Shown here: positions 46,232 to 48,034 of the stretch, in pieces
How the letters are laid out: the number at the start of each line of letters is the position of its first letter
How positions within the stretch are numbered: the stretch's first letter is position 1
NCBI GenBank assembly: GCA_964016885.1
Contig: OZ024744.1
Coordinates: forward strand, 44,454,001-44,518,000
DNA length: 64,000 nucleotides
Source: Eledone cirrhosa
Lineage: Eukaryota
Direction: 5' to 3'
Position numbers and translations under genes: made by a program
The notes under the pieces: model-generated
The model's database searches: none
The model's input: only the letters and a program-made list of their open reading frames with translations
What the model was told of the DNA's origin: nothing

Positions 46232-47034
46232 TTTCAATGTTTGTACACATAATTGACCTCCTTTCCAACGCAAGAGACATACAGATACATATATATATAA
46301 TGATGTACAGTGGAGTGACTTATATTATATTATATTATTTCTGTATAGCAATTCAAATTCAAAATCAAAATCAAAATTAAAATTAAAACAAAATTAAAAC
46401 AAAATTAAAATACATTCGGCATTTAACACAGATAATGCAAGAGGATAGTTTGTTAGTCAGATGTTCTTACATTGAGTTATTTATCTTACTGGTAATAAGA
46501 TAGTAATAAATTACTGACCTTCACTGTTTAGAGTTTAAAATATACATAACTATAAAAAGTTTTAGTATATACTTAACCATAAATAGTATTCTTAATATTA
46601 TATATATATATATATATATATATATATATATATATATATATATATATATATGTATATACATATATATATATATATATATATATATATATATATATATATA
46701 TATATAAGTTGAAATAAAATGAAAACGAAATTTCATTTCTCACTCTTAGTACGGCACTTACTTAAATGTAAGTATGTGTGTATACGTACATACATATATG
46801 TATACAGACGTACAGTAGCATGCATATATATATATATATATATATATATATATATATATATATATATATATATATATATATACAGGTACACATACATATA
46901 TGCACGTATCAGTTTAGCGGACGCTTATTATAACGCCGCTTTGTTCATTTGTAAACAAACTGAACAGCCTGAATTTTTATGCCGTACGGTGTTAAGGCAA
47001 CCACGTCACATTTTTGTTCAACACTGACACAGGA

Positions 47035-47077
47035 ACGATGTACTAGTTTCAAGCTTGTTAGCTATCATCAGCACCGT
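47035..47077 (-). ncRNA. Type I hammerhead ribozyme
   Basis: Minus strand: ACGGTG CTGATGA T AGCT AACA AGCT T GAAA CTAG TA CATCGT. Confidence 0.82.
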
Positions 47078-47506
47078 ATACCCATCTGCCAGATAGTTGA
47101 CCGTTCTAAAGTATATACTTTCCTTATGAAAATTAACGGCTGAGCAGCCTAATTTGCATATCGAGTGAGCTAAGCCGGTCAGGCATACCGAAAACGATAA
47201 GTTGAAATAAAATGAAAACGAAATTTCATTTCTCACTCTTAGTACGGCACTTACTTAAATGTAAGTATGTGTGTATTCGTACATACATATATGTATACAG
47301 ACGTACAGTAGCATGCATATATATATATATATATATATATATATATATATACATACAGGTACACATACATATATGCACTATCAGTTTAGCGGACGCTTAT
47401 TATAACGCCGCTTTGTTCGTTTGTAAACAAACTGAACAGCCTGAATTTTTATGCCGTACGGTGTTAAGGCAACCACGTCACCTTTTTGTTCAACACTGAC
47501 ACAGGA

Positions 47507-47549
47507 ACGATGTACTAGTTTCAAGCTTGTTAGCTATCATCAGCACCGT
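47507..47549 (-). ncRNA. Type I hammerhead ribozyme, second copy
   Basis: Identical core 472 bp from the first copy. Confidence 0.82.
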
Positions 47550-48034
47550 ATACCCATCTGCCAGATAGTTTACCGTTCGAAAGTATATACTTTCCTTATG
47601 AAAATTAACGGCTGAGCAGCCTAATTTGCATATCGAGTGAGCTAAGTCGGTCAGGCATACCGAAAACGATAAGTTGAAATAAAATGAAAACGAAATTTCA
47701 TTTCTCACTCTTAGTACGGCACTTACTTAAATGTAAGTAAGTGTGTATACCTACATACATATATGTATACAGACGTACAGTAACATGCATATATATATAT
47801 ATGTATATATATATATATATATATATATATATATATATATATATATATATATATATATATATATATATATATATATATATATATATATATATATATATAT
47901 ATATATATATATATATATATATACATACAGGTACACATACATATATGCACTATCAGTTTAGCGGACGCTTATTATAACGCCGCTTTGTTCGTTTTGACGT
48001 ACATGGGGGTCGAACCCACATATTTGTTTAACCG

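Follow-up and report, generated by a model that had tools for sequence, protein, structure and literature searches.

A tandem hammerhead repeat resembling non-LTR retrozymes in Eledone cirrhosa, with subfamily differences that spare the predicted ribozyme

Do the differences between two subfamilies (A and B) of a hammerhead-bearing repeat of Eledone cirrhosa reflect selection on RNA structure, as held by an earlier note on this DNA, or neutral drift, and what kind of element carries them? The stretch analyzed (hereafter the window) comprises 64,000 nt of contig OZ024744.1 (positions 44,454,001 to 44,518,000); its relevant features are collected in Table 1. The locus of subfamily B had been described as one diverged inverted copy. 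It is indeed diverged and lies in the minus strand, but it consists of 2.7 tandem units with two ribozymes. The two complete ribozyme-bearing units are 98.5% identical to each other, and B shares about 80% identity with array A when the microsatellite zone is left out. The A and B units are 424–472 bp long, have a GC content of 28–37%, and show no LTR layout. The copies had also been said to adjoin (TA)n tracts. At B this holds for one tract, that at 46595–46706, which is flanking DNA; the other three of the four tracts at the locus (46824–46882, 47317–47355 and 47789–47927) belong to the repeat unit.

Table 1. Coordinates of the features of the window (position 1 is its first nucleotide)
Feature	Position	Strand	Remarks
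Subfamily A array	6..6434	plus	15 full units of ~424 bp, 94% mean pairwise identity
Flanking (TA)n tract, likely insertion target	46595..46706		
Subfamily B array	46704..47994	minus	2.7 head-to-tail units of 472 bp each, 5′-truncated; 3′ end abuts (TA)n
8-bp hairpin AAAUGAAA/UUUCAUUU	46717..46738	minus	Just inside the 3′ end of B
Type I hammerhead motif B2	47029..47085	minus	Identical to B1; predicted cleavage after A47041
Type I hammerhead motif B1	47501..47557	minus	Predicted cleavage after A47513
5′ junction of B	47991..47994		GTTT, 4-nt microhomology with left-truncated tRNA-like palindromic element
Penelope-like element	54329..58432	minus	5′-truncated, inverted head of 1.3 kb; candidate type of helper
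GIY-YIG region of Penelope-like element	55300..56076	minus	CxCX5C, CxxC and CxH motifs
RT part of Penelope-like element	56077..57078	minus	In-frame stop in element
Family D	58924..59868	plus	2.7 identical 310-bp units, three hammerhead motifs (cores 59048, 59358, 59668)
Fragment C	61856..61920	plus	3′-terminal, ribozyme-free piece between TA tracts; end point about that of B

Inspection of the window with a strict descriptor detected 16 hammerhead motifs (11 in A, two in B and three in D), where 100 block shuffles gave 0.01 on average; the presence of the motif is not due to chance. The hammerhead core, as defined in the available text of PMC3088659 (C3 U4 G5 A6 N7 G8 A9, G12 A13 A14 A15, U16 and H17), was complete in both full B units, in 12 of the 15 A units, and in all three D units. 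In B1, helix I has a 5-bp distal part, a UAU/U internal loop and a 6-bp proximal part with a G.U pair at 47546/47510. The core segment CUGAUGA, a U.U followed by a 4-bp helix II with an AACA loop, and GAAA complete the center of the motif, while helix III is the palindrome ACUAGU. All 18 pairs were formed in B, with helix III counted as an intermolecular palindrome; helix I is open-ended. In A, B and D, U.U takes the place of the usual G-C pair at 10.1–11.1. The variant is known, since natural U10.1-U11.1 hammerheads have been described (PMC3088659), and HHR_Amex2 of the axolotl, with U.U at the base of helix II, cleaves, and does so better as a dimer (PMC7229834, in the part available).

When 66-mers were folded separately, A and B shared the 5-bp distal helix I, the UAU bulge and helix II, and D had the same helix I arms with 3 bp of the distal helix I. 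The folding of the isolated ribozymes was not superior to that of shuffled sequences (z 0.2 to −0.6), and the monomer is predicted to be unable to close helix III well. Predicted energies placed the dimer arrangement 5–7 kcal/mol below two monomers in all three pairs; the cofold optimum was the dimer arrangement for D only, those of B and A not being a clean dimer. Circular folds of the unit gave z values of −5 to −9 (25 shuffles each), figures inflated by the TA tract and to be set beside the −4 to −5 reached by antisense strands. The best Rfam match was Hammerhead_HH9 (18.6 bits, E = 0.21), far under the gathering score of 52; Rfam matches to microRNAs were rejected as (TA)n artefacts. The exact ribozyme pattern was found at no locus in metagenome, viral and prokaryote contigs.

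The differences between A and B reported in the earlier note were reproduced letter for letter: stem I changes from ACGTTG/CAGCGT to ACGGTG/CATCGT (pairs 47546/47510 and 47074/47038), the core from CUGACGA to CUGAUGA, and loop II from AAUA to AACA. The catalytic boxes and stems are also kept, as stated there: nothing has changed at the 11 invariant positions of the core, in helix II or in the palindrome of helix III. The stem I change had been taken as compensatory. The replacement of U.G by G.U is real, but it is a single wobble swap for which a U.U intermediate exists: the B-type 3′ half CATCGT is already present in three of the 15 A copies (cores at 112, 1383 and 4755), where it gives U.U. 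The swap left the stem I energy almost unchanged (−5.2 vs −5.0 kcal/mol), with the U.U copies at −1.3 kcal/mol. Four random substitutions hit one pair twice and left it paired in 3.4% of cases; the core and all pairs survived in 1.4% (4.5% with a U.U copy as reference). The flanks had likewise been said to diverge while the ribozyme is kept. The direction was right, but the contrast (4/43 vs 63/333) reached only p = 0.08 in a one-sided Fisher test. With the distal helix included it was not significant (8/57 ribozyme vs 59/319 flank substitutions, p = 0.27), and two ribozyme-free blocks were equally conserved (3–4 differences per 43 positions). The evidence first put forward for compensation (one wobble swap, two lineages and a non-significant rate) is thus weak.

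These results would suit a satellite carrying a relic ribozyme, in which the A/B differences arose by neutral drift in one lineage split and are compensatory in looks only. The wobble swap with its intermediate at hand, the rate contrast and the equally conserved blocks all fit such a history, as do the CpG-type transition from CUGACGA to CUGAUGA and the damage seen in nine of the 15 array A ribozymes. The position and nature of the changes speak against it. The distal part of helix I contains four further A/B differences, all of them pair-preserving (G.U to A-U, A-U to U.G, and A-U to G.U). Over the 57 nt of the motif, A and B differ by eight substitutions, two double changes among them, with none of the 18 pairs broken and the core kept. 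Random placement of eight substitutions preserved core and pairs with P ∼5e-4, for a span chosen after seeing the data and for one lineage split; with the letters redrawn at the same positions, P was 0.008–0.02, or 0.12 against a U.U-bearing A copy.

The alleles segregating within array A behave otherwise. Six of the eight found in the 57-nt span damage the core or a pair, against none of the eight A/B differences (p = 0.0035; 0.009 with double changes counted once). The core mutations G8C and A13U were seen in three of the 15 copies, G8C in two of them; G8C abolishes hammerhead activity (PMC11167929, available text). As core positions mutate among the array copies, genomic copies are not individually constrained. 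The damaging alleles within the array, set against the harmless A/B differences, indicate that copies decay after insertion and that the subfamily differences look filtered. It is the location and the kind of the changes that are non-random; the ribozyme does not have a lower substitution rate. The relic satellite has also to contend with family D, a young family whose units are identical and whose ribozyme, built to the same design, is intact. We regard drift in a relic satellite as improbable.

Family D shares with A and B the U.U at the base of helix II, a 4-bp helix II, the UAU bulge and a G.U at the third pair; its helix III palindrome is ACGCGU, and no similarity to A or B was found outside the ribozyme. 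Relative to B it shows eight double changes and one of 18 pairs broken, and relative to A, ten double changes. In an alignment of A, B and D (20 copies, 14 distinct rows), 97.2% of the cells were paired (slid controls, 37–52%), and two-sided change was present at 11 of the 18 pairs. This was matched in 0 of 500 shuffles, in a control that ignores relatedness and with three lineages only, so that the changes represent few events. Taken together, selection has probably acted on the hammerhead RNA structure. The earlier note was therefore probably right on this point, by virtue of the distal helix, the allele contrast, family D and the read frequencies that link the two sides of the swapped pair (see below); the evidence that it gave was insufficient. 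Stronger compensation outside the ribozyme (14 A monomers vs B) was considered and discarded, the same-position P running from 0.015 to 1.0, inconsistently across reference copies.

One B unit was compared with four of the 23 listed runs (X1, X4, X5 and X21), those with small word shares (X6–X20) being left out; no RNA run with the repeat was among those listed. It matched 7,912 contigs of X1, 137 of X4 and 63 of X5 (which carries another species label), and 126,704 of the 12.5 million X21 reads; as X21 is a reduced-representation library, neither its depth nor the 1% read share gives a copy number. The A/B repeat is very high-copy. At the swapped pair, the 5′ side was U in 52% and 4.8% of the X21 reads (two mate directions) and the 3′ side G in 50% and 5.5%. 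Since the 5′ U tracks the 3′ G, U.U is probably rare genome-wide, the phase being deduced from frequencies. A third allele, A, at the 5′ side (8–9%) implies an A-U pair and speaks against the idea, since dropped, that the third pair of helix I has to be a wobble. Of the 40 variant rows listed, out of 132, ten were located within the 57-nt motif, all of them outside the core, helix II and helix III; core variants at low level may occur among the other 92. The distal double change was loosely linked in the reads (77% vs 56%, and 30% vs 12%), and 18–59% of them had A in place of the final U of the UAU bulge. The X4 contigs (47356–47788) mostly represented a third subfamily with CUGACGA, AAUA and, at the swapped pair, A on the 5′ side.

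The reads also bear on the ends of the element. Contigs had loose ends at 47688 (80 in X1 and three in X4), where an A-type 3′ terminus passes into TA-rich sequence; this gives modest support to a common 3′ end. Pile-ups of X21 read ends at about 47448, 47606, 47626 and 47697 (all AATT), and at 47787 (ATGCAT), were set aside as restriction-library artefacts and not element ends. In the window, the 3′ end of B lies ∼335 nt downstream of the predicted cleavage site, beside the conserved hairpin, which is present too in the array A units and in fragment C and is a candidate recognition site for a reverse transcriptase. The A/B repeat occupies three loci in the window (A, B and C). Its mobility is inferred from this dispersal and from the nearly shared end point of B and C, which in both adjoins TA. 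Mobility had been claimed before and is probably correct, with the corrections that the copy at 61855–61920 is a ribozyme-free fragment and that the unit itself includes three of the four TA tracts at B. As to target-site duplications, which retrozymes need not have, the ends here lie in (TA)n, and the 5′ end of B is a microhomology junction.

For family D, the evidence of insertion is direct: its flanks have an inverted duplicate near 53718 that lacks D and represents an empty paralogous site. The insertion is very recent. The array lies within (TA)n and begins with an inverted 5′ piece (∼58924–59033). Identical units, an inverted head and an empty site fit insertion as a ready-made multimer.

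Within array A a higher-order duplication was found, units 6/13 and 7/14 being 99.5–99.7% identical. About 35 nt upstream of its ribozyme, every A unit (e.g. at 492–502) contains AGGTAAGTA, which we take to be a 5′ splice donor of consensus sequence; in B the sequence is AGGAAAGTA. An intron close to the hammerhead is a feature of Penelope-like elements (PMC4209133, in the text available).

The Penelope-like element of the window was assigned to this class on the grounds of homologues and motifs, its ORFs having no direct match in Pfam or PDB. The RT ORF had 372 longer homologues at E ≤ 0.001 among 4,374 candidates. The ORF of the GIY-YIG region matched P0022, a protein with the Pfam GIY-YIG domain, at 35% identity over 228 aa, and the ORF's motifs CNCRNKANC, CRLC and CNH match those of the Hydra clade, whose members have (TA)n targets, CxCX5C and canonical hammerheads according to the available part of PMC8557442. 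No hammerhead core and no sequence common to A, B or D was found in the element, so that it shows only that such machinery was active in the genome. A second RT fragment, 86% identical to the first, lies at the end of the window (63539–64000). The RT at 42983–44437 was rejected as Penelope-like since its APE and zf-RVT domains make it a LINE; that LINE may conceivably act as helper, but nothing links it to the repeat. This RT belongs to a broken LINE at 40425–45176 (APE, RT and zf-RVT), and a more decayed LINE-like stretch is found at ∼35600–39300.

Other repeats surround these elements. A palindromic tRNA-like element with an inverted partial head and TA-rich flanks is present at 49595–49900 and at 47991–48207, the two copies having ∼560 bp in common at 97%; ARAGORN identified their tRNAs (49726–49797 and 48035–48106) as Ser-GGA, without the long variable arm. 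Large inverted duplications occur in 48327–50894 and 51734–61824 (422 bp at 96–97%, 606 bp at 100% and 504 bp at 98%), and a near-perfect palindromic element of ∼190 bp, possibly a head-to-head insertion, lies at 51271–51465 between two (TA)n tracts. A 23.5-kb satellite with a 31-bp unit, ∼760 copies and a strong GC skew extends over 11164–34635, adjoined by a 2.9-kb, CA-rich low-complexity tract with extreme strand skew (7993–10880).

The Penelope-like element and the higher-order duplication could point to another origin, in which the units are pseudo-LTR (pLTR) remnants of autonomous Penelope-like elements, selection acted in the parents, and the arrays grew by unequal exchange at the DNA level without going through an RNA cycle themselves. 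In Xenopus, retrozymes show relatedness to pLTRs, and their tandems are proposed to grow locally (bioRxiv 10.64898/2026.07.22.740005, available text). Such an origin sits poorly with the absence of any ORF of at least 120 aa in B and the DNA adjoining its ends, with the lack of similarity between the units and the Penelope-like element of the window, and with B and D both being insertions of 2.7 units; we think it unlikely.

The reading that we favor, and hold to be likely, is that B is a tandem insertion of a non-LTR retrozyme subfamily, the RNA of which is predicted to cut itself and was likely copied into (TA)n by a Penelope-like element. By analogy with known systems, multimeric transcripts would fold two ribozymes together via the ACUAGU palindrome, and the folded dimers would cleave after GUA, yielding unit-length RNA that a host ligase may circularize. 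A Penelope-like RT/endonuclease would then nick (TA)n and start priming next to the 3′ hairpin, ∼335 nt downstream from where the RNA is cleaved, and internal priming of this kind would give 5′-truncated multimers. Dimer cleavage, circularization by a host ligase and reverse transcription by an autonomous element are found in the available part of PMC7229834, and internal priming has been demonstrated for an anole element (PMC11167929). In Xenopus, eight of nine predicted retrozyme dimers showed no cleavage in vitro (bioRxiv 10.64898/2026.07.22.740005). The few source copies that go through the RNA step, and not every genomic copy, would be exposed to selection; arrays would consequently decay while subfamily differences stay harmless.

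That the RNA was taken over by the host, and the fold kept by selection on the B locus, might be suggested by the abundance of retrozyme circles in mussel, coral and axolotl tissues (PMC7229834). The genomic copies decay freely, and B is 5′-truncated and embedded in repeat-rich DNA, both of which argue against this; we consider it highly improbable. A wider form of the retrozyme reading is tentative, and we lean against it: a single Penelope machinery of Hydra type, targeting (TA)n, may be exploited in this genome by several non-coding parasites that are unrelated to one another. These would be the tRNA-bearing element and two hammerhead families, both with a U.U-closed, dimer-only ribozyme in which the third pair of helix I is a wobble.

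If this wider reading is true, the decaying arrays and the harmless subfamily differences would be genetic evidence that the spread of retrozymes in vivo needs ribozyme activity. In vitro, insertion by a Penelope-like element was unaffected in hammerhead mutants (PMC11167929, in the text available). The class itself is ordinary, hammerhead tandem repeats with covarying families being known across animals. The value of this family is as a test system, in which many copies and several subfamilies allow a genome-wide test of polymorphism versus fixed differences.

A literature search found no cephalopod report of such elements; further invertebrate families are listed in the supplements to PMC7229834 and PMC8557442, and this one may be among them; the available text of PMC13282606 contains no occurrence of hammerhead, ribozyme or retrozyme. 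By sequence criteria, B fits the known non-LTR retrozymes and would belong there as a new member. The two motifs B1 and B2 are complete type I hammerheads in consecutive units, the retrozyme criterion used in the preprint on Xenopus (bioRxiv 10.64898/2026.07.22.740005, available part).

Among the known systems, the closest are the metazoan non-LTR retrozymes of Cervera and de la Pena 2020, PMC7229834 (especially axolotl HHR_Amex2/Rtz_353 and mussel repeats of 350–390 bp), here compared through the available part of that text. They have the same low-GC, non-coding tandem unit with one type I hammerhead and a weak palindromic helix III suited to dimer cleavage; their predicted monomer is highly self-paired, as that of B may be. 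HHR_Amex2 also shares with B the U.U at the base of helix II. B differs from the types described there in combining this Amex2 feature with an Amex1-like helix III of 1 bp plus a palindromic CUAG tetraloop. Further, its unit contains an internal (TA)n and reaches 472 bp, compared with a range of 150–450 bp in PMC7229834 and 51–972 bp in the Xenopus preprint. Those retrozymes yield RNA circles, and B, which is predicted to cleave, may do likewise.

Hydra-clade Penelope-like elements (Craig et al. 2021, PMC8557442, available text) have in common with the present repeats the (TA)n targets, partial tandems, 5′ truncation and canonical hammerheads, together with the inverted 5′ piece seen in family D. 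They differ in that A, B and D encode nothing and are unlike the Penelope-like element of the window in sequence. The minimal hammerheads of Penelope-like elements (Cervera and de la Pena 2014, PMC4209133, available text) are also type I and dimer-dependent, and form covarying consensus families. Their helix II is long and their helix I short, however, and they carry a single extra base and G10.1-C11.1, unlike B with its helix I of 6+5 bp, 4-bp helix II and U.U.
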